A stretch of DNA of 64,000 bases from Candidatus Heimdallarchaeota archaeon. GTDB taxonomy: Archaea; Asgardarchaeota; Heimdallarchaeia; JABLTI01. Location: assembly GCA_018238155.1 (NCBI GenBank), contig JABCTZ010000026.1, positions 1 to 64,000 on the forward strand, in the 5' to 3' direction. This document shows, in pieces, positions 8,271 to 37,241 of this stretch. How positions within the stretch are numbered: the first letter of the stretch is position 1; every line of letters begins with the position of its first letter. The notes below the pieces were generated by a model, which saw only the letters and a list, made by a program, of their open reading frames with translations, was not told the origin of the DNA and made no database searches. The translations under genes and the position numbers were made by a program.

Positions 8271-8434
8271 AATATCAGCCACTTTTTTCTTAAGTTTATC
8301 TTGGGAATTAATAATATTTTCTGATAATAATTGAAGCAAGATATGCTAAAACAACAAAAAGAACTGTTTTTAGTATAAACATATCGTAGTAGTCCTAAAG
8401 ATTTTTATTTCCTTTTTTAACAATATTTTTTATC

Positions 8435-10360
8435 ATGAAATCGATAGAGAAGTTATGCGAGAAATATGCTATCCAGAATGCACTCGACCATGGAGAAGCA
8501 AAACTTGGTCCAGTGATGAGGGTAATCATGGCAACCCATGCGGAGCTCCGCAAAGAAGCCGATAAAGTAACAGAAATTCTCGAACAACAAATTGATTTCA
8601 TAAATTCACTTACAAAAGAGAAAATCGAAAGAATCGCTCGAGAGAAGTTCCCTGAAATTCTGAAAAAGGAAGAGGAACAAACCTCAACAAAGGATGTTGA
8701 TTTCATTCGAACGATAATAAATGAGGATCTTAAAACAAATAAATTCAAGGGACGAGTCCATACTAGATTTCCACCAGAACCAAATGGCTATTTGCACATC
8801 GGACATGCTAAATCAATAAATTTGAATTATGGATTAGCTGAAGAATACAAAGGAAAATTCAATCTTCGATTTGATGATACAAATCCAATGACTGAAGAAA
8901 TGGAGTATGTGAAAGGAATAATCGAAGATGTAAAATGGCTTGGAGCAGATTTCGAGGATAGATTACTCTATGCTTCTGATTATTTTGAGCAGTTCTATGA
9001 CTGGGCTGTACAGCTTATCAAGAAAGGATTAGCTTTTGTTGATGACTCAAGAACAGAAATGATACGTAAAGATAGAGGTTCATTAACCGAACCAGGAAAA
9101 AATAGTTCTTACAGAAATCGCTCCATTGAAGAAAATTTGAGACTATTTGAGGATATGAGAAAAGGGGAATATCCAGAAGGGGGCAAAGTATTACGTGCGA
9201 AAATCGATATGACACATCCCAACTTATTGATGCGTGATCCAATTATTTACCGAATTCTCCACAAAGAACACCACAATACCGGAGAAAAGTGGTGTATTTA
9301 TCCCACGTATGACTGGGCTCACGGATTGGAAGATTCCATAGAAGGGATAACCCACTCAATTTGCACACTAGAGTTTGAAGTTCACAGACAATTATACGAT
9401 TGGTTCCTTGAACAGTTAGATGATGAAAAAGGAAACCCTATATTTCATCCACAACAAATTGAATTTGCTCGATTGAATGTTTCAAACACAGTTCTTAGCA
9501 AACGAAAAATGCTTCGATTAGTGAAAGAAGGATTTGTTAATGGCTGGGATGATCCAAGAATGTTAACAATTGTTGGATTGAAACGCAGAGGAATTACTTC
9601 TGAGGCTATCAGCAAATTCTGTAAAGTCATTGGTGTAACAAAAAGAGACACTATAATAGACATTTCAGTTTTGAATAAATGTGTTAGAGATGATTTGAAC
9701 AAACAATGTTCAAGGGTTATGAGCGTATTAAAGCCTCTTAAATTAACTATCACAAATTACCCAGAGGATAAAGTAGAGGATATTACTATTCCAAATCATC
9801 CCAAAATTAAAACTATGGGCACAAGAAAAGTGAAATTTGCAAAAACACTATTTATCGAACGAGATGATTTCATGGAAAAACCAACTAAAGATTTCTTGAG
9901 GTTGACACCAGGTAGAGAAGTTCGATTGAAATATGCCTTTGTTGTGAAATGTGATAAGATCATCAAAGATAAAAAATCTGGTGAAGTAATTGAGCTTCAG
10001 TGCAGTTTTGACCCAAAATCAAAAAGTGGGCAACCAGGTGACGATAAGGCTTACAGAACTATTCATTGGATTGCTAAGAAAAATGCTATTCAAGCAGAAG
10101 TAAGATTGTATAACCAGCTGTTCACGAAAGTAAATCCACTAGATACTGAAGAAGGGAAAGATTTCACAGATTACATAAATCCCAATTCTCTCGAGATAGC
10201 AAAAGCCTATGTAGAACCTCATTTACAAAAGGCAAAGAAAGGAACGAGATATCAGTTTGAACGTTTGGGATTCTTCAATGTTGACCCTATTGATTCTAAG
10301 AAGAATGCTTTAGTGTTCAACCAAATAATACCATTACGAGACTCAAAACCGAAAAAATAG
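8435..10360 (+). CDS. glnS: Glutaminyl-tRNA synthetase with an archaeal GluRS-type N-terminal extension
   Basis: FIRTIINEDL...VHTRFPPEPNGYLHIGHAKS, YPTYDWAHG, THSICTLEF (Cys as in GlnRS, where GluRS has Arg), QIEFARLN, VLSKRK, YQFERLGFF. Confidence 0.93.
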   Translation: MKSIEKLCEKYAIQNALDHGEAKLGPVMRVIMATHAELRKEADKVTEILEQQIDFINSLTKEKIERIAREKFPEILKKEEEQTSTKDVDFIRTIINEDLKTNKFKGRVHTRFPPEPNGYLHIGHAKSINLNYGLAEEYKGKFNLRFDDTNPMTEEMEYVKGIIEDVKWLGADFEDRLLYASDYFEQFYDWAVQLIKKGLAFVDDSRTEMIRKDRGSLTEPGKNSSYRNRSIEENLRLFEDMRKGEYPEGGKVLRAKIDMTHPNLLMRDPIIYRILHKEHHNTGEKWCIYPTYDWAHGLEDSIEGITHSICTLEFEVHRQLYDWFLEQLDDEKGNPIFHPQQIEFARLNVSNTVLSKRKMLRLVKEGFVNGWDDPRMLTIVGLKRRGITSEAISKFCKVIGVTKRDTIIDISVLNKCVRDDLNKQCSRVMSVLKPLKLTITNYPEDKVEDITIPNHPKIKTMGTRKVKFAKTLFIERDDFMEKPTKDFLRLTPGREVRLKYAFVVKCDKIIKDKKSGEVIELQCSFDPKSKSGQPGDDKAYRTIHWIAKKNAIQAEVRLYNQLFTKVNPLDTEEGKDFTDYINPNSLEIAKAYVEPHLQKAKKGTRYQFERLGFFNVDPIDSKKNALVFNQIIPLRDSKPKK

Positions 10361-10451
10361 TCTAGATACTATTTTATAGTTTCAAAAGAAATATTTAAAA
10401 CCGAGTTCGAAAAATAAAACTAGTATTGGAAAATTGATTCCAATCATCAAT

Positions 10452-10560
10452 AGACCCGTAGTCTAGTTCGGCCAAGGATTGGGGACTTTGAAAAAAGTCT
10501 CAATTCGTTGGGATTTTCAAGAATCCCTCGACGGGAGTTCAAATCTCCCCGGGTCTACCA
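10452..10560 (+). tRNA. tRNA-Gln(UUG) with a 31-nt anticodon-loop intron (~10493..10523); CCA encoded
   Basis: AGACCCG/CGGGTCT-ACCA acceptor stem (A1-U72), GGGGA-CTTTGAA-TCCCT anticodon arm after splicing, GGGAG-TTCAAAT-CTCCC T-arm. Intron forms a 10-bp stem with a TTCG loop. Confidence 0.93.
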
Positions 10561-30287: not shown

Positions 30288-32297
30288 ATGCTAGACCTTA
30301 CTAAAATAGATTTTAAGAAAATGGGCTTTAGAGCAGGTATTGAAGTTCATCATCAAATAAACACCAAAAGAAAGTTATTCTGTCATTGTAAACCAATTCT
30401 TAGTCATGGAGAACCTGATTATCGTTTTGAACGATATTTTCGTCCTGTTTTAGGTGAAATGGGTGACTTTGATGAAGGAATGTTAATCGAATATGAAAAA
30501 GGATATCGAGTAATCTATCACGCCTATGAAGATTCGGTCTGTGTTTATGAGCAAGATGAGCAACCGCCCTTTTGGCCAGATAACGATGCTATTTATTTAG
30601 GGTTCGAGCTTGCTCATTGGTTAAATTTCTCTGCATTGGTTGACGAGGTTGTTGTTTCAAGAAAACAATATCTTGATGGATCCATTACTACGGGTTTTCA
30701 AAGAACAATGATTGTAGCTCGTGATGGCTGGGTTCCAATAGGAGAGAAAAAAATAGCTATTTCTAATCTTACCGTTGAAGAAGATTCGGCAAGAAAAATC
30801 AAAACTGAGAATTTTGGCAGGACAGTATATTATAATCTAGATCGCTTAGGAATGCCTCTTGTTGAGGTTATTACGGATCACAATGATTGTGATAATCCGC
30901 AAGACCTTCAACGAGCCGCTGAATATATTGGACTTACTTTGAGATTAAGTGGTATAGGCAAACGTGGTCTTGGAGTAGTAAGACAAGATGTGAATATTAG
31001 CATAAAAGGAGGGCGTCGAGTCGAGTTAAAGGGAGTACAAGATCTAAGCACTTTTGTTGATCTTGCAACACGGGAAGTAGCTAGACAAGATATGCTAATT
31101 AAGATTGCAGCAATGCTAAAAGAGCGTAGTTTCAAAAAGAATGAATTGGAACACATTTATATCGATTTAACAGATAAATTTGCTGGAAGCAATATTCCAA
31201 AAAATAATATTATTATGGGTATACGATTACCAAAATTCGGGAATTTGTTAGGCTTAGAAATTCAACCAGGTAAAGATTTTGGTCAAGATATAATTGAGAA
31301 AGCTGAATTGATTTCAGGTATTCCTAGAAGTAACCTCTTCCATTCAGATGAAATTAATAAGAAAGCTCTTCGAAAACTGCGTGAAAAAACCTTACGAAAA
31401 AACAAAGAACAATTCCAAGAAAATTTCTTTTTCCCTGTTGTTACAGATAAATTAAATCAAGATATTCGAAAAACACTTAGATTAAAGAAAGATGATGGAT
31501 ACTTCTTAACACTTGGTCCTCAAACATGGGTTATTCATGCTATGAAGAAGATCATTGAAAGAGCAAAAATGGCTCTTGATGGAGTACCTGAAGAAACACG
31601 CAGATTTTTACCTGATAATAATTCAGAATTCCTAAGAGTAATCCATGGACAAGATCGTCTTTATCCTGATACAGACACTCCACTGATTGATATGGATATT
31701 CAGAAAATCGAAGAACTGAAGAAGAAAGTACAGAAACGCCCTTGGGAATGGGAAACCGAATTCAAAGAAAAATATGGTTTGGATTATCAGAAAGTTAAAG
31801 CAATGATACGACATGGGACAATAACAACTGTTCAAGAGCTAATTGAAAAATTCTCACTAAACCCCAAAAAATGCTTTTTCTTCATTGAAGAAACACTACT
31901 TGCTCTCAGAAGAGAGGGGTTTGATACTTCAAAGTTGACCATTGAGAAGACTGCTGAAATAATCAAAGGTGCAGAAGATGGTGTGTATGATTTTAATCAA
32001 GTGATCAATATTGCTAAGACCATTATTAATAATCCTAAGAAAAGTCTGAAACAAGCACTTTCAGATTTGAAAATAAGGAAGATTTCTAAAACGGAGCTCC
32101 AAAAATTATTTACTGAAGCATTGAGTCAACTTACGAAATTTAAAAACGAAAAAATATCTGTTAAAGATGGTTCAATAAACAACCGGATAGCAGATAAAAT
32201 TACTGGTACTATTATGAGAAGAACAAATGGAAGTATATCAGGAAAGACGGTCTACGATTTTGTCTTGAAAAATTTGGAGGGTAAAACCAGTAATTAA
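30288..32297 (+). CDS. gatE: Glu-tRNA(Gln) amidotransferase subunit E
   Basis: GIEVHHQ...KLFC, DGSITTGFQRT, EEDSAR, LDRLGMPLVE, RQDVNISIKGG.RVELKGVQ, RLYPDTD. Confidence 0.92.
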   Translation: MLDLTKIDFKKMGFRAGIEVHHQINTKRKLFCHCKPILSHGEPDYRFERYFRPVLGEMGDFDEGMLIEYEKGYRVIYHAYEDSVCVYEQDEQPPFWPDNDAIYLGFELAHWLNFSALVDEVVVSRKQYLDGSITTGFQRTMIVARDGWVPIGEKKIAISNLTVEEDSARKIKTENFGRTVYYNLDRLGMPLVEVITDHNDCDNPQDLQRAAEYIGLTLRLSGIGKRGLGVVRQDVNISIKGGRRVELKGVQDLSTFVDLATREVARQDMLIKIAAMLKERSFKKNELEHIYIDLTDKFAGSNIPKNNIIMGIRLPKFGNLLGLEIQPGKDFGQDIIEKAELISGIPRSNLFHSDEINKKALRKLREKTLRKNKEQFQENFFFPVVTDKLNQDIRKTLRLKKDDGYFLTLGPQTWVIHAMKKIIERAKMALDGVPEETRRFLPDNNSEFLRVIHGQDRLYPDTDTPLIDMDIQKIEELKKKVQKRPWEWETEFKEKYGLDYQKVKAMIRHGTITTVQELIEKFSLNPKKCFFFIEETLLALRREGFDTSKLTIEKTAEIIKGAEDGVYDFNQVINIAKTIINNPKKSLKQALSDLKIRKISKTELQKLFTEALSQLTKFKNEKISVKDGSINNRIADKITGTIMRRTNGSISGKTVYDFVLKNLEGKTSN

Positions 32298-32311
32298 TTG
32301 AGGTGTCTACC

Positions 32312-33778
32312 ATGGTAAAGAAGAATAGTGAAACAAAAAAAGAAGAGCAAAAAGCTGTTCGTGAACCAACAGGGTATCGTGGAAACCTTCGCACAAGATT
32401 AGAAAAGGAGGGTATTGGTGTCTGGAGCCAAGTTCGTGTTAAAAAAGGAAACGCCCTTTACGAAGGTGTTATTCTCCCTAGAAGTCAACATACAACAGAA
32501 GGGTATCTTGTCTTAAAAGTAGATACCGGTTATAATATTGGTGTAAAAATAACTAAGGATACAACAATAGAAGAATACGGTTACAAAGAAGGAAAATACA
32601 AACTACCGGACATTAGTGTTACATTCAAAGATCATTTACCAAATGTTACTTTACTAGGAACGGGCGGGACAGTTGCATCTCGTCTTGATTATAGAACAGG
32701 AGCAGTATTACCAGCTTTTACTCCTGAGGAATTATTTAGTGCTGTTCCAGAGTTAATTGATATTTGTAATTTAACACCGAAGAAAATCTACTCGCTTCTT
32801 TCTGAGAACTTCAAACCAGAATTCTGGGTTAAAACTGCCGAAGCGGTTATGAAAGAATTCAAGAGTGGAGCGAATGGTGTTATTATTGGTCATGGAACAG
32901 ACACAATGTCGTATACGGGCTCAGCTCTTTCATTTATGTTCCAAAATTTAGCCGCACCGGTTGTCCTTGTGGGATCTCAACGGAGTAGTGATAGACCTTC
33001 AAGTGATGGTCCACTCAATATCATTAATGCAAGTCATATTGCAGGTTATGCTGACCTTGCTGAAGTTGTTCTTTGTATGCATGGTGGAACAAGCGACTCG
33101 TACAATCTCATCCATAGAGGAACGCGAGTAAGAAAGATGCACTCAAGTCGTCGAGATGCTTTTAGAACTATTAGTGATATTCCTCTAGGAGTTATCGATG
33201 CAAACCAAAAAGTCACCTTCCTTAAAGATGATGTGAAACGAAGAGGAGACATTGCTGATACTTATATTGACACAAAAATTGATCCAAAAGTCACTATTCT
33301 CTATTTCTACCCTGGAATGAATCCAGATACACTTGATGCAATTATCGATAAAAAATATCATGGAGTTGTTTTCGTTGGCACGGGACTTGGACATGTAAAT
33401 ACCGATATGTACCCTGCTCTCGAGAGAGCTCAAGAAGAAGAAATACCTATTTGTATCGTTGTCGAACCGCTCTACGGATTTACAAATCTTAGAGTCTATG
33501 AAACAGGTAGAGATATGTTAGCGAAAGGAGTATTCGAAGGAGCTAATATGCTTCCAAGTACTGCTTATGCTAAAATGATTTGGACATTAGGACATACTCG
33601 AGATGTTAAAGAAGTTGAAAAAATAATGACAACCAATATTGCTGGCGAAATAACCAACAAAGAAATGAATAAAGGTTATATGCTTATGCAAGGAGTCGAA
33701 CCTGGTCTTGATGAACTTCTTAAAAAGATCAATCCTAATCCAAGAGAACACACTTGGCCGGGAAGCAACGAAAACTAA
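32312..33778 (+). CDS. gatD: Glu-tRNA(Gln) amidotransferase subunit D
   Basis: TGGTVASRLDYRTG, HGTDTM, GSQRSSDRPSSD, RKMHSSRRDAF. GAGGTG SD before the ATG at 32312. Confidence 0.95.
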   Translation: MVKKNSETKKEEQKAVREPTGYRGNLRTRLEKEGIGVWSQVRVKKGNALYEGVILPRSQHTTEGYLVLKVDTGYNIGVKITKDTTIEEYGYKEGKYKLPDISVTFKDHLPNVTLLGTGGTVASRLDYRTGAVLPAFTPEELFSAVPELIDICNLTPKKIYSLLSENFKPEFWVKTAEAVMKEFKSGANGVIIGHGTDTMSYTGSALSFMFQNLAAPVVLVGSQRSSDRPSSDGPLNIINASHIAGYADLAEVVLCMHGGTSDSYNLIHRGTRVRKMHSSRRDAFRTISDIPLGVIDANQKVTFLKDDVKRRGDIADTYIDTKIDPKVTILYFYPGMNPDTLDAIIDKKYHGVVFVGTGLGHVNTDMYPALERAQEEEIPICIVVEPLYGFTNLRVYETGRDMLAKGVFEGANMLPSTAYAKMIWTLGHTRDVKEVEKIMTTNIAGEITNKEMNKGYMLMQGVEPGLDELLKKINPNPREHTWPGSNEN

Positions 33779-34634: not shown

Positions 34635-37241
34635 ATGTTAAAGAATCTCACTAAAGCTGAAATTGAAACAATTTATAATGAATATCAAGAGATTCGAGAT
34701 GAAATAATTAAAGATATACGATCTGACCTTTATGGTAAAAGAGTAATACAATACATACAGCACTTACTTTTTGCTTTGTTCATGATTCCTACTCTAACTA
34801 AAAACCACTTGATCAAAAGTAATGAAAAAATGAAATGCTCTTCAGAAGTAATTTTCAACAGCATATTGAATAGCCGAGATAAAAAGGAAAATTTACATGC
34901 ATTATTTACTTCTTTTGGAAAAAACCAAAAAAGAACCTCATATATAATTGAGGATAAAGAACTTATAATTCAGCTACCAATTGAAATCAGAGGTTGGTTT
35001 TCAAAAGCCTACTATAAAGAGAGAAATTATTTTGACGATTTAGAAATTTGTAAACTAGTTAAATTTTCTTTTGAAAAAATAAAACAATACGGTAGCAATG
35101 TTACTGAATCTTTCAGCACTATTTTTGAAAGAGATATGAACTATTACGACTTTCTATCATCAGAAGAAAAAGAAGATAAAGAAAAGATAAAAATCACCCG
35201 TCAATTAACAGGTAGAAGAAAAAAAGGTGTTTTCTATACGCCACCAGAGATTGCTAAATATATGACCGAAAAAGTTATTCTTTCACTTCTTAGTAAAAAA
35301 ATGACCATCTCAAGAAAAGAACTGGAAGATATAAAAGAAATTGACAATAATAAAACTCTCAAAACAATGTATAATGTCCTTTCTAATCTTAGAATTCTAG
35401 ATATTACTTGTGGTTCTGGAGAATTTTTGCTTGCAACTGCTAGAATTTTATTTGAATTACAAAAAAACATTGCCGGAAAATTGTCATTAAAAGTTTCTGA
35501 TGCAGAACTTAAGAAAGTCATTATTGAAAGTAATTTATTTGGTGCTGATTTGATAAATGAAGCACTTTCAATTTCAAGAATAAATTTGTGGTTATGGTTT
35601 ATTTCAAATCGTGAAGATGCAACTTTCGATTCGTTGCCTTCTATTGATTTAAATTTCAATTTAGTGTCAGGGAACAGTCTAATCGGTTTCGTAAATAATC
35701 ACTTGATTGGAAAAGAGAAAATCAATGAAGCATTTATGCACTATCTTAATGAGAAAAGCAAGAAAAATAATTTTACTATTGACGAATTGCTAGAAATGAA
35801 CCCATTACATTGGAGTGAAAAATTTCAATCCAGTATAGCAGAAGGTGGTTTTGATTTAGTTATTGGTAATCCACCTTATATTGAAATCAAAAAGATGAGA
35901 AATAAAAGAGAGAAAGAGATTTTTTCTCAAGAATATTATTCTGCATACAAATTGTATGATATTGCAATTTTATTCATTGAACGTGGTTTACAATTATTAA
36001 AAGAAAAAGGTCATCTTTCGTTTATTATTACCAATAAATTTCTCTCAACTGATTTTGGAAAAAATATCAGAGAGATTATTCTCACTCAATCTAAAATACA
36101 TTCGATTATTGATGTTTCATATTTACCTGTTTTTCAAGATGCTTCGATTTATCCTATTATTTTAACGATTGAAAAAGCAGTATCTCAAGACAGAGAAGTA
36201 AATCTTGCAAATCGTTTCTATGTTTCATCTAAAATAGAAGAATTAAATGAGTTACATTCTGATTCATTCGAAAAATATTTTAGAAAACAGATTGAGTTTT
36301 TTGAACTCCCGAAAATGATTTTTAATATTTCAGCAAATCTTGAACTAATACAATCGATCATGAATAATCCCTTAACAAAAAAATTAGATTCGTATGGGAA
36401 ATTTGCTTATCGTGTTTTAGGTTTCACAGATTGGAACAAAAATGTTAAACAAATCACTGAAAATCCTAAATCGAATGGAGATTTTAGAATTATTGGAACA
36501 GCAAATATTTCACCTTATTCTATCAACTTTCAAAAACCAGTTCGATTATCTAAAGTAAAGTTTGAAAATCCATTTCTTAAAATTGAAAATAAGAAGCATA
36601 CAGATCTTTTCAGTAAGCCTAAATTACTAATAAAAGAAGTTGCAAAAGAATTAACAGTAGCATATGATCCTGGAGTTTTCGCAAACTTAACTGGTATGTA
36701 TATGTTTTATCCACACAATCCGGACTTAATGAAAACGCTTACTTTGATTCTGAATTCTGATATTTTAAATGTAATCTTTTCATCATTATATAGTAGCACA
36801 CATCTTGCGGGAGGATATCTCCGATTTAATGGTAGCTATCTCAAAGAACTCCCAATAATAATTCCTGAGGATGCAAAGTTACAAAATATTTTAACAAAAC
36901 TAGCTAATTATCAATTATTTTTAACCCAGAATCAGAAATTAAATGAAATCACAGAAGTGGGAGATGCAATATTATTCCTTAAGAGTCTGAGCGATTTTCT
37001 TGTTGATTCAATATATTTTGAAAGAGAATTAGATTCAGGACTGATAACAACACTGAATTCAAGTCTAATAGAAATAAATTATGAAAATTGGTTTCTTGAA
37101 CTATTTACTGATTATTCTACTAGGTTTGATACTAACTATCTCAAGAGTGAAAATAACTTGAATATACTCAAGAAAATTCTTTCTTCATGTAAAAAATTAG
37201 AAGAAGAAAATGATATTATTGTTGAATTAATCAGTTTTTAA
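34635..37241 (+). CDS. N6-adenine DNA methyltransferase, TaqI/Eco57I-like, with C-terminal target-recognition domain
   Basis: GVFYTPPEI, ILDITCGSGEF (motif I), FDLVIGNPPY (motif IV), LKELPI. Confidence 0.85.
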   Translation: MLKNLTKAEIETIYNEYQEIRDEIIKDIRSDLYGKRVIQYIQHLLFALFMIPTLTKNHLIKSNEKMKCSSEVIFNSILNSRDKKENLHALFTSFGKNQKRTSYIIEDKELIIQLPIEIRGWFSKAYYKERNYFDDLEICKLVKFSFEKIKQYGSNVTESFSTIFERDMNYYDFLSSEEKEDKEKIKITRQLTGRRKKGVFYTPPEIAKYMTEKVILSLLSKKMTISRKELEDIKEIDNNKTLKTMYNVLSNLRILDITCGSGEFLLATARILFELQKNIAGKLSLKVSDAELKKVIIESNLFGADLINEALSISRINLWLWFISNREDATFDSLPSIDLNFNLVSGNSLIGFVNNHLIGKEKINEAFMHYLNEKSKKNNFTIDELLEMNPLHWSEKFQSSIAEGGFDLVIGNPPYIEIKKMRNKREKEIFSQEYYSAYKLYDIAILFIERGLQLLKEKGHLSFIITNKFLSTDFGKNIREIILTQSKIHSIIDVSYLPVFQDASIYPIILTIEKAVSQDREVNLANRFYVSSKIEELNELHSDSFEKYFRKQIEFFELPKMIFNISANLELIQSIMNNPLTKKLDSYGKFAYRVLGFTDWNKNVKQITENPKSNGDFRIIGTANISPYSINFQKPVRLSKVKFENPFLKIENKKHTDLFSKPKLLIKEVAKELTVAYDPGVFANLTGMYMFYPHNPDLMKTLTLILNSDILNVIFSSLYSSTHLAGGYLRFNGSYLKELPIIIPEDAKLQNILTKLANYQLFLTQNQKLNEITEVGDAILFLKSLSDFLVDSIYFERELDSGLITTLNSSLIEINYENWFLELFTDYSTRFDTNYLKSENNLNILKKILSSCKKLEEENDIIVELISF

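Follow-up and report, generated by a model that had tools for sequence, protein, structure and literature searches.

How does a glutaminyl-tRNA synthetase (GlnRS) come to be encoded by an archaeon, and how might it read an archaeal tRNA-Gln? According to reviews as late as 2022 (including PMC9499178), this enzyme is missing from all archaea or from nearly all of them, and its absence is explained by the incompatibility of archaeal tRNA-Gln, with its A1:U72 pair and discriminator A73, with bacterial and eukaryotic GlnRS. The question is raised by a gene at positions 8435-10360 of contig JABCTZ010000026.1 (assembly GCA_018238155.1) of Candidatus Heimdallarchaeota archaeon, whose forward strand was analyzed over positions 1-64,000 (this whole 64,000-nucleotide stretch is referred to below as the window). 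In our view the gene quite probably encodes a functional, glutamine-specific GlnRS derived from bacteria, onto which the N-terminal domain of a glutamyl-tRNA synthetase (GluRS) has been grafted, adapting the enzyme to archaeal tRNA-Gln.

That the 641-residue product is a genuine GlnRS with a chimeric architecture appears, from its sequence, almost certain. It scores 681.7 bits on the NCBIfam equivalog model TIGR00440 (glnS; cut-off 425.8) and 809.7 bits on PRK14703 (cut-off 681), the latter match beginning at residue 82, while on the archaeal gltX model TIGR00463, to which it aligns from residue 5, it stays below the cut-off (386 vs 402). Pfam places the class-Ic catalytic domain PF00749 at residues 108-422 and two beta-barrel anticodon-binding domains at residues 425-526 and 542-617. 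Bacterial GlnRS structures (Pseudomonas aeruginosa 5BNZ, Escherichia coli 1O0B and 1GTR) match residues 84/85-638 with 620-635 bits; the human and yeast enzymes match from residue 105 only (444 and 388 bits, respectively), and the GluRS of M. thermautotrophicus (3AII) from residue 3 (213 bits).

The E. coli determinants of glutamine recognition (Arg30, Tyr211, Cys229 and Gln255) are found here as R111, Y292, C310 and Q341. In an alignment referenced to the E. coli enzyme these four residues do not vary in any of the archaeal copies examined, nor do H121 of the HIGH motif and K356 of the MSK loop, and Leu136 of the unpairing loop is likewise conserved in every one of them. C310 stands opposite an Arg in the GluRS of the same genome, to which the GlnRS core is 33% identical. 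A sequence-only reading of this DNA had noticed bacterial GlnRS signatures in the core, including the Cys-for-Arg position, and it has proved right on both counts.

Comparison with well-characterized enzymes brings out what is peculiar to this one. With the archaeal non-discriminating GluRS (M. thermautotrophicus 3AII; PMC2978374) it shares the class-Ic architecture and the N-terminal domain (residues 1-85, disordered in 3AII), but it differs in its GlnRS-specific unpairing loop, in the Cys for Arg and in its sub-cut-off gltX score. With bacterial GlnRS (E. coli GlnS 1GTR/1QTQ/1O0B; P. aeruginosa 5BNZ) it is collinear from residue 84/85 and has in common all glutamine-specific and catalytic residues as well as the Leu136 unpairing loop; unlike these enzymes, however, it carries an extra N-terminal domain and has a Val (V316) in place of Asp235, the reader of the acceptor stem. 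Asp is present at this position in 18 of 28 close bacteria, and is absent from all Heimdallarchaeial enzymes compared, both those with the N-terminal domain (long form, 0/10) and those without it (short form, 0/9).

The N-terminal domain (N-domain) is clearly related to that of archaeal GluRS. Its residues 7-82 align without gaps to the N-termini of the GluRS of the same genome and of other Heimdallarchaeial GluRSs, as the sequence-only reading had suspected from their resemblance; this gap-free alignment extends over about 85 residues, and N15, G20, A22 and N57 are invariant in the domain. Beyond it the two proteins part, GlnRS continuing with the bacterial N-terminus (DFIRxIINED) and GluRS with its own catalytic domain. 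The bacterial N-terminal motif retained behind the N-domain is therefore a signature of fusion, not of descent from GluRS. The affinities of the domain were also apparent from a six-frame search of 251 Asgard genomes with residues 1-84, in which the N-termini of GlnRS and GluRS were the main matches (a word-indexed search with the same residues, an insensitive method, returned three near-identical proteins only). Other long-form GlnRS N-termini were 42-90% identical to the query and the GluRS of the same genome was 43% identical (45.6 bits). Among the seven families (f1 to f7) into which the 83 species genomes of our class survey fall, f1 being that of the window genome, the GluRSs of f6 matched with 51-59 bits and those of f3 with 25-47 bits; GluRSs of other Asgard genomes gave 20-38 bits.

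In a tree of the N-domain (84 columns), the GlnRS N-domains group with those of Hodarchaeales GluRS (96/87*), inside the Heimdallarchaeial GluRS radiation and apart from the GluRS N-domains of f1 and f3. The suggestion that a tRNA-binding domain of the host had been grafted onto an acquired GlnRS is thus upheld as regards an archaeal GluRS as the source of the domain, and has to be given up as regards the GluRS of the present host. The GluRS N-domains of four f6 genomes (G063, G059, G069 and G066; L060-L063) lie inside the GlnRS N-domain cluster, on a long branch. Their placement within the joint clade raises the possibility that the domain was exchanged between GluRS and GlnRS, in either direction; the alignment is too short to tell which way it passed. 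Family f6 also seems to have two types of GluRS, with glnS-model scores of 198-225 and of 277-302 bits.

The fusion is not confined to a single genome but is lineage-wide. A GlnRS scoring above the cut-off is encoded in 41 of the 83 genomes of the class (8/12 in f1, 21/31 in f3 and 12/22 in f6), and in no genome of f2, f4, f5 or f7. The long form occurs in f1 and f3 (29 genomes), and the short form, which starts like the bacterial enzyme, in f6, a family whose NCBI names place it in the Hodarchaeales. We also identified about 60 proteins of approximately 640 residues, 60-86% identical over their full length, which originate from metagenome-assembled genomes (MAGs) labelled Heimdallarchaeota, Heimdallarchaeaceae or Asgard; taken over dozens of Heimdallarchaeota MAGs, enzymes of this architecture are 60-93% identical to the one studied here. 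The nearest relative is a cold-seep Heimdallarchaeota MAG. Ca. Heimdallarchaeum aukensis and Ca. H. endolithica, both with closed genomes, also have the long form.

What kind of tRNA does such an enzyme meet? The sequence-only reading had placed a tRNA-Gln(UUG) gene directly downstream, and this gene is indeed there, starting 91 bp past the GlnRS stop codon. Default ARAGORN and Rfam at its gathering threshold report no tRNA in the window, and it is intron-aware ARAGORN that finds the gene, whose anticodon loop is interrupted by an intron. A canonical bulge-helix-bulge was not recovered by minimum-free-energy folding of the pre-tRNA, in which the intron pairs with the anticodon arm. The acceptor stem (AGACCCG/CGGGTCT) is followed by discriminator A and an encoded CCA; the archaeal tRNA-Gln identity set is A1:U72 plus A73 (PMC9499178), in contrast to the U1:A72 and G73 of E. 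coli tRNA-Gln. A tRNA-Gln(UUG) gene was called beside the GlnRS gene at 9 of 18 long-form loci, roughly 77-150 bp past it at eight of them and about 560 bp past it in L008. At all seven loci whose acceptor ends were read, the tRNA has A1:U72, A73 and an encoded CCA. At some loci (L008:3936-4074, L006:3280-3387, L012:3282-3384 and L028:3815-3921, locus coordinates) the adjacent tRNA-Gln contains one or two non-canonical introns, in the D-loop or T-arm. Such genes are mis-typed by ARAGORN as Ile, Ser, Val or Tyr, and the linkage is therefore under-counted by standard tools.

The short-form enzymes are found in a different setting. In Hodarchaeales the short GlnRS gene is followed by a convergent pair of tRNA-Gln genes (UUG plus CUG), which have A1:U72 but G73, the bacterial discriminator. 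G73 tRNA-Gln is present in all 12 GlnRS-positive genomes of f6 and in one further f6 genome, in which it is located at the edge of a contig; the nine f6 genomes without G73 all lack GlnRS. A complete genome of this family (G058) contains both a G73 and an A73 set, and only A73 tRNA-Gln was found in the GlnRS-less genomes G062 (f6) and G046 (f5), as well as in the long-form genome G006. Thermoplasmata archaeon bin33 (L158; CP070751.1:3895540-3900162) encodes a short bacterial-type GlnRS (61% identical), with G73 tRNA-Gln(CUG) and tRNA-Gln(UUG) genes upstream and an A73 tRNA-Gln(CUG) gene downstream of it, and thus repeats the tRNA-side pattern of the Hodarchaeales in an unrelated archaeal lineage. 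The GlnRSs of Hodarchaeales and of this Thermoplasmata MAG are, like the window enzyme, archaeal, of bacterial type, linked to tRNA-Gln and accompanied by the GatDE amidotransferase, but they have no N-domain, their linked tRNAs have G73, and a second, A73 set is encoded elsewhere.

The unfused enzyme is thus found with retuned tRNAs and the fused enzyme with native ones, from which we infer that the graft and the loss of Asp235 adapt the enzyme to its substrate. Acquisition of the core followed by grafting of the N-domain is supported by the sequences: the GlnRS core would have reached the Heimdallarchaeia from bacteria by horizontal transfer, and would there have been fused to the N-terminal helical domain (about 85 residues) of an archaeal non-discriminating GluRS. 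The appended domain would act as a cis-acting tRNA-binding helper and, together with the Asp235-to-Val change, would let the bacterial-type enzyme accept the native A1:U72, A73 tRNA-Gln, which it is accordingly predicted to charge. A broader scenario can be drawn tentatively, although we hold it to be less likely than not. The long-postulated orthogonality of bacterial GlnRS to archaeal tRNA-Gln may have been overcome in two ways: (i) by changing the enzyme, in Heimdallarchaeaceae and their relatives, where the GluRS N-domain was grafted, Asp235 was lost and native A73 is read, and (ii) by changing the tRNA, in Hodarchaeales and Thermoplasmata, where a duplicated tRNA-Gln switched to G73 to suit an unmodified enzyme. 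The long-form organisms would then be living intermediates, with redundant direct and indirect routes acting on the same tRNAs, at the stage through which any loss of GatDE would have to pass.

The indirect route is encoded in the same genome. Intact gatE and gatD genes had been noticed 20 kb from the GlnRS gene; they are adjacent, their products score above the equivalog cut-offs (gatE 445 and 503 bits, gatD 510 and 511 bits), and they turn out to be one of two such pairs. The second lies on contig C41 (G000:C41:173726-177133; L036:5655-9158) and also passes the cut-offs, with higher scores. The GatD proteins of the two pairs are 49% and the GatE proteins 34% identical. We considered whether the window pair might be a divergent paralogue specific to f1, and rejected this idea, since the window GatE type, found throughout f1, is the only GatE in f3; the C41 type resembles that of f4 to f7. 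The f2 genome G001 also has two GatE matches. A separate archaeal GluRS of 605 residues, which establishes that this genome has a gltX distinct from the chimeric gene, is encoded on contig C17. AsnRS is present in the genome and GatB was not found in it. GatD scores above the cut-off in 75 of the 83 genomes of the class and in 38 of the 41 that encode GlnRS, the three exceptions being incomplete or having the gene split at contig ends; GluRS accompanies them.

With GluRS and two pairs of GatDE retained alongside GlnRS, the direct and the indirect pathway to Gln-tRNA(Gln) probably operate side by side in this organism. The coexistence of the two pathways proposed in the sequence-only reading is thus borne out at the level of the genes, all of which are encoded in one genome, while the operation of both is a likely consequence of this gene content. 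An alternative that we regard as rather unlikely, although it fares best among those considered, is that the pathways are partitioned or that one has replaced the other: GlnRS would supply some or all of the tRNA-Gln, and GatDE would be kept for conditional glutamine supply, for a subset of isoacceptors or for another substrate, so that no tRNA would be served redundantly by both routes. The divergence of the two f1 GatDE pairs (34-49% identity) suggests subfunctionalization, the genome contains three tRNA-Gln genes, and G73 and A73 sets occur side by side in Hodarchaeales. On the other hand, both GatDE pairs pass their equivalog cut-offs, and the conserved tRNA-Gln genes of the long-form lineages all specify A1:U72 and A73, so no obvious mark separates two pools. 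One candidate for such a mark was a second tRNA-Gln(UUG) gene of the window genome (G000:C41:228195-228270; L037:4196-4271), which has the same acceptor stem with discriminator U73, a eukaryote-type base. It was rejected, since its orthologues in nine other f1 genomes have A73 (the remaining two f1 genomes gave no match); U73 is peculiar to this assembly, and is therefore a strain-level change or an assembly error.

The role of the N-domain can be approached by analogy. In the GlnRS of Deinococcus the YqeY domain acts in cis to raise the affinity for tRNA-Gln (Deniziak et al. 2007, PMC1865053), and the N-terminal domain of yeast Gln4 acts likewise on tRNA-Gln (Grant et al. 2012, PMC3333875). 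The enzyme of Deinococcus radiodurans (2HZ7) resembles the window GlnRS in combining a bacterial-type core with a small helical domain taken from the machinery of the indirect pathway. The Deinococcus domain is, however, C-terminal, GatB/YqeY-like and about 215 residues long, whereas that of the Heimdallarchaeial enzyme is N-terminal, derived from archaeal GluRS and about 85 residues long; moreover, the host is in this case an archaeon that retains GatDE. If the domain does assist tRNA binding, GlnRS would here have gained a helper domain of the indirect pathway for a third time, independently of the other cases. On these analogies, we consider the chances that the N-domain serves as a tRNA adaptor to be about even.

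Structural comparison was attempted with an AlphaFold2 model of the N-domain, which consists of four helices and a flexible linker (pLDDT 83.8). Residues 1-85 of the non-discriminating GluRS were described as a disordered YqeY domain by Nureki et al. 2010 (PMC2978374), and because of this disorder in the crystal the homologous part of 3AII is missing from the structure bank. Foldseek found no match to the model in the PDB at an E-value of 0.001 or better. In a VIA-align comparison with 48,161 chains all Z scores were 6.2 or less, i.e. within the noise range; the top 50 included two YqeY proteins (8XJG, Z 5.4, 1.2 A over 46 residues; 1NG6, Z 4.7, 1.5 A over 47 residues) and the N-terminal tRNA-binding domains of human and yeast GlnRS (Z 4.6-5.5), all with scores in that same range.

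The N-domain might instead be a protein docking module that tethers GlnRS to GatDE, GluRS or a translation factor in a transamidosome-like assembly, an idea that we consider distinctly improbable. It would fit the occurrence of the same domain on the very GluRS from which GatDE receives Glu-tRNA(Gln), as well as its disorder in the crystal of the free enzyme; a tRNA-binding fold of the YqeY type also has no support from sequence comparison. However, every characterized domain appended to GlnRS (Deinococcus YqeY, yeast N-terminal domain) acts on tRNA affinity, and the C-terminal subdomain of YqeY superposes on the N-domain model at 1.2-1.5 A over 46-47 residues.

For the core, a bacterial origin is very probable judging from identities and trees. 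It is 62-65% identical to Bacteroidota/Calditrichia-like GlnRSs. Trees were built from both Heimdallarchaeial forms, their closest bacterial matches and representatives at 50% identity (among which eukaryote-type GlnRSs were verified by PF04558/PF04557), with Asgard GluRS as the outgroup; FastTree, a quick tree under the posterior mean site frequency (PMSF) model and careful maximum-likelihood trees on focused sets were used. A 100* branch splits all GlnRSs from Asgard GluRS, and eukaryote-type GlnRSs are united in one clade (100*). The two archaeal forms fall elsewhere, in a shallow and well-supported clade (100* in the FastTree and quick PMSF trees, 99/95* in the careful tree), which also contains bacteria labelled Bacteroidota, Calditrichia, Desulfobacterota and Anaerolineae. 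Separate phylogenies of the two parts thus agree with the chimera that had been proposed, the core being nested among bacterial GlnRSs and the N-domain among Heimdallarchaeial GluRSs. The long form (100/100*) falls within a Bacteroidota-like cluster, behind starred nodes (95/88* and 96/91*), and the short form (100/99*) is placed apart, its nearest bacteria being Desulfobacterota and Anaerolineae (70-72% identity). Since monophyly of the archaeal forms was not rejected by an approximately unbiased (AU) test (delta lnL 2.8, p 0.45), the trees are compatible with one as well as with two archaeal acquisitions.

It could also be supposed that GlnRS arose vertically, by duplication of GluRS within the Heimdallarchaeia, that it is akin or ancestral to the eukaryotic enzyme and that bacteria acquired it later, a course of events that we hold to be very unlikely. 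The N-domain is, admittedly, common to GlnRS and GluRS, its model bears a weak structural likeness to the N-terminal domain of eukaryotic GlnRS (Z 4.6-5.5; Gln4 3TL4, QARS 4YE6), which is also a helical appendage, and the deep GlnRS nodes are weak. Against this, the identity of the core to bacterial GlnRS is about twice that to the GluRS of its own genome, the bacterial DFIRxII segment is retained between the N-domain and the catalytic domain, the core belongs to a shallow and well-supported clade with several bacterial phyla, and four of the seven families of the class have no GlnRS. The eukaryotic appendage comprises about 190-250 residues and consists of PF04558 plus PF04557, both of which are absent from the Heimdallarchaeial protein, and the cores of the two enzymes are in separate clades. 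A tree constrained to unite archaeal and eukaryote-type GlnRS was 37.6 lnL units worse (p-AU 0.077). The bearing of the locus on the loss of GatDE by eukaryotes, which the sequence-only reading had envisaged, is not supported, the archaeal GlnRSs standing in a shallow bacterial clade away from the eukaryote type; the present evidence carries no information on the origin of eukaryotic GlnRS.

Several observations nevertheless weigh against the explanation that we prefer, an acquired bacterial core adapted by a GluRS domain. The grouping with eukaryotes is disfavoured but, at the p-AU given above, formally not rejected, and the deep branching order of the GlnRS tree has poor support. The direction of transfer, from bacteria to archaea, is argued from distribution, which is wide in bacteria and patchy in archaea, and is not proven. 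Roughly one in two long-form loci has no linked tRNA-Gln, among them those of the complete Heimdallarchaeum genomes, in which A73 tRNA-Gln genes are situated about 13 kb from GlnRS. A search for RNA sequencing runs covering the locus listed none. As for the N-domain, a profile comparison by hhalign with the YqeY domains of bacterial GlnRS C-extensions gave a probability of 0.3%, no sequence relationship to the Deinococcus domain being detectable, a Pfam scan of eight N-domains at E-values up to 10 returned noise alone, and the YqeY label comes from the name used in the literature and from weak structural matches in the noise range (Z 4.6-5.5).

An artefact, either an assembly chimera near position 8680 or a bacterial contig contaminating an archaeal MAG, is so improbable that it can be set aside: the contamination estimate of the assembly (4.08 Mb, 46 contigs, 90.7% complete) is 5.9%, but the contig is 212 kb long, has uniform G+C and includes both archaeal gatDE and an archaeal tRNA gene with an intron, the same fusion recurs in two closed genomes and in some 60 proteins and MAGs of independent origin, the domain junction (8376-8751) is bridged by a contig of an unrelated study in a relative that is ~92% identical, and GlnRS and gatDE share one contig in the relative G075.

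The archaeal class closest to eukaryotes thus has a conserved GlnRS, and its sequences, with those of the tRNAs, hint at the way in which the incompatibility with archaeal tRNA-Gln was overcome. The chimeric and unfused Heimdallarchaeial forms are not described in published reviews. One paper asserts the transfer of GlnRS to archaea, giving no detail, and a 2024 preprint mentions in passing GlnRS beside cox genes in Hodarchaeales and Kariarchaeaceae; our literature search found no paper pairing GlnRS with Heimdallarchaeota, and the NCBI annotation of these proteins is automatic. The natural enzyme/tRNA pairs described here may also serve the engineering of orthogonal translation.

Table 1. Coordinates of the features of the window, with examples of fused GlnRSs of bacteria (last row)
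Feature	Position	Strand	Remarks
Chimeric GlnRS gene	8435..10360	+	641 aa plus stop; ORF (open reading frame), TIGR00440 681.7 bits
N-terminal helical domain (residues 1-84)	8435..8686	+	homologous to archaeal GluRS N-terminal 'YqeY' domain
Bacterial-type GlnRS core (residues 85-641)	8687..10357	+	opens with bacterial N-terminal motif DFIRxIINEDL
tRNA-Gln(UUG), A1:U72, A73, encoded CCA	10452..10560	+	aragorn -i; covariance model 59.7 bits
31-nt intron, anticodon loop of tRNA-Gln(UUG)	10491..10521	+	aragorn -i i(40,31); boundary ambiguous by 1-2 nt (A run)
gatE (669 aa), window-type paralogue	30288..32297	+	TIGR00134 445 bits, cut-off 320
gatD (491 aa), window-type paralogue	32303..33778	+	TIGR02153 510 bits, cut-off 324
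Fused bacterial GlnRS examples	proteins P0062, P0078, P0117; P0309, P0339 and others; P0121		

Bacterial GlnRSs with other fusions were also encountered. They include proteins of about 1030-1100 residues in which a PF19269 domain of the GluRS type forms the N-terminus (WOR-3 and others), proteins of about 707 residues with a PF01588 tRNA-binding domain (Deltaproteobacteria) and a protein of 865 residues with a GST_C domain.

Several f6 ORFs of about 340-380 codons (e.g. G069:C123:4566-4754, G066:C56:46516-46704 and G067:C76:13000-13200) start with a weak likeness to the N-domain (23-26% identity, E-values of 1e-5 to 1e-3), and may represent a further protein family with a related helical domain. 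Finally, just downstream of gatD in the window, an 868-codon ORF (34635-37241) shows weak similarity to adenine methyltransferases of the PglX type from bacteriophage exclusion (BREX) systems (74 bits, far below the cut-offs), and may belong to a locus for defence or restriction-modification.

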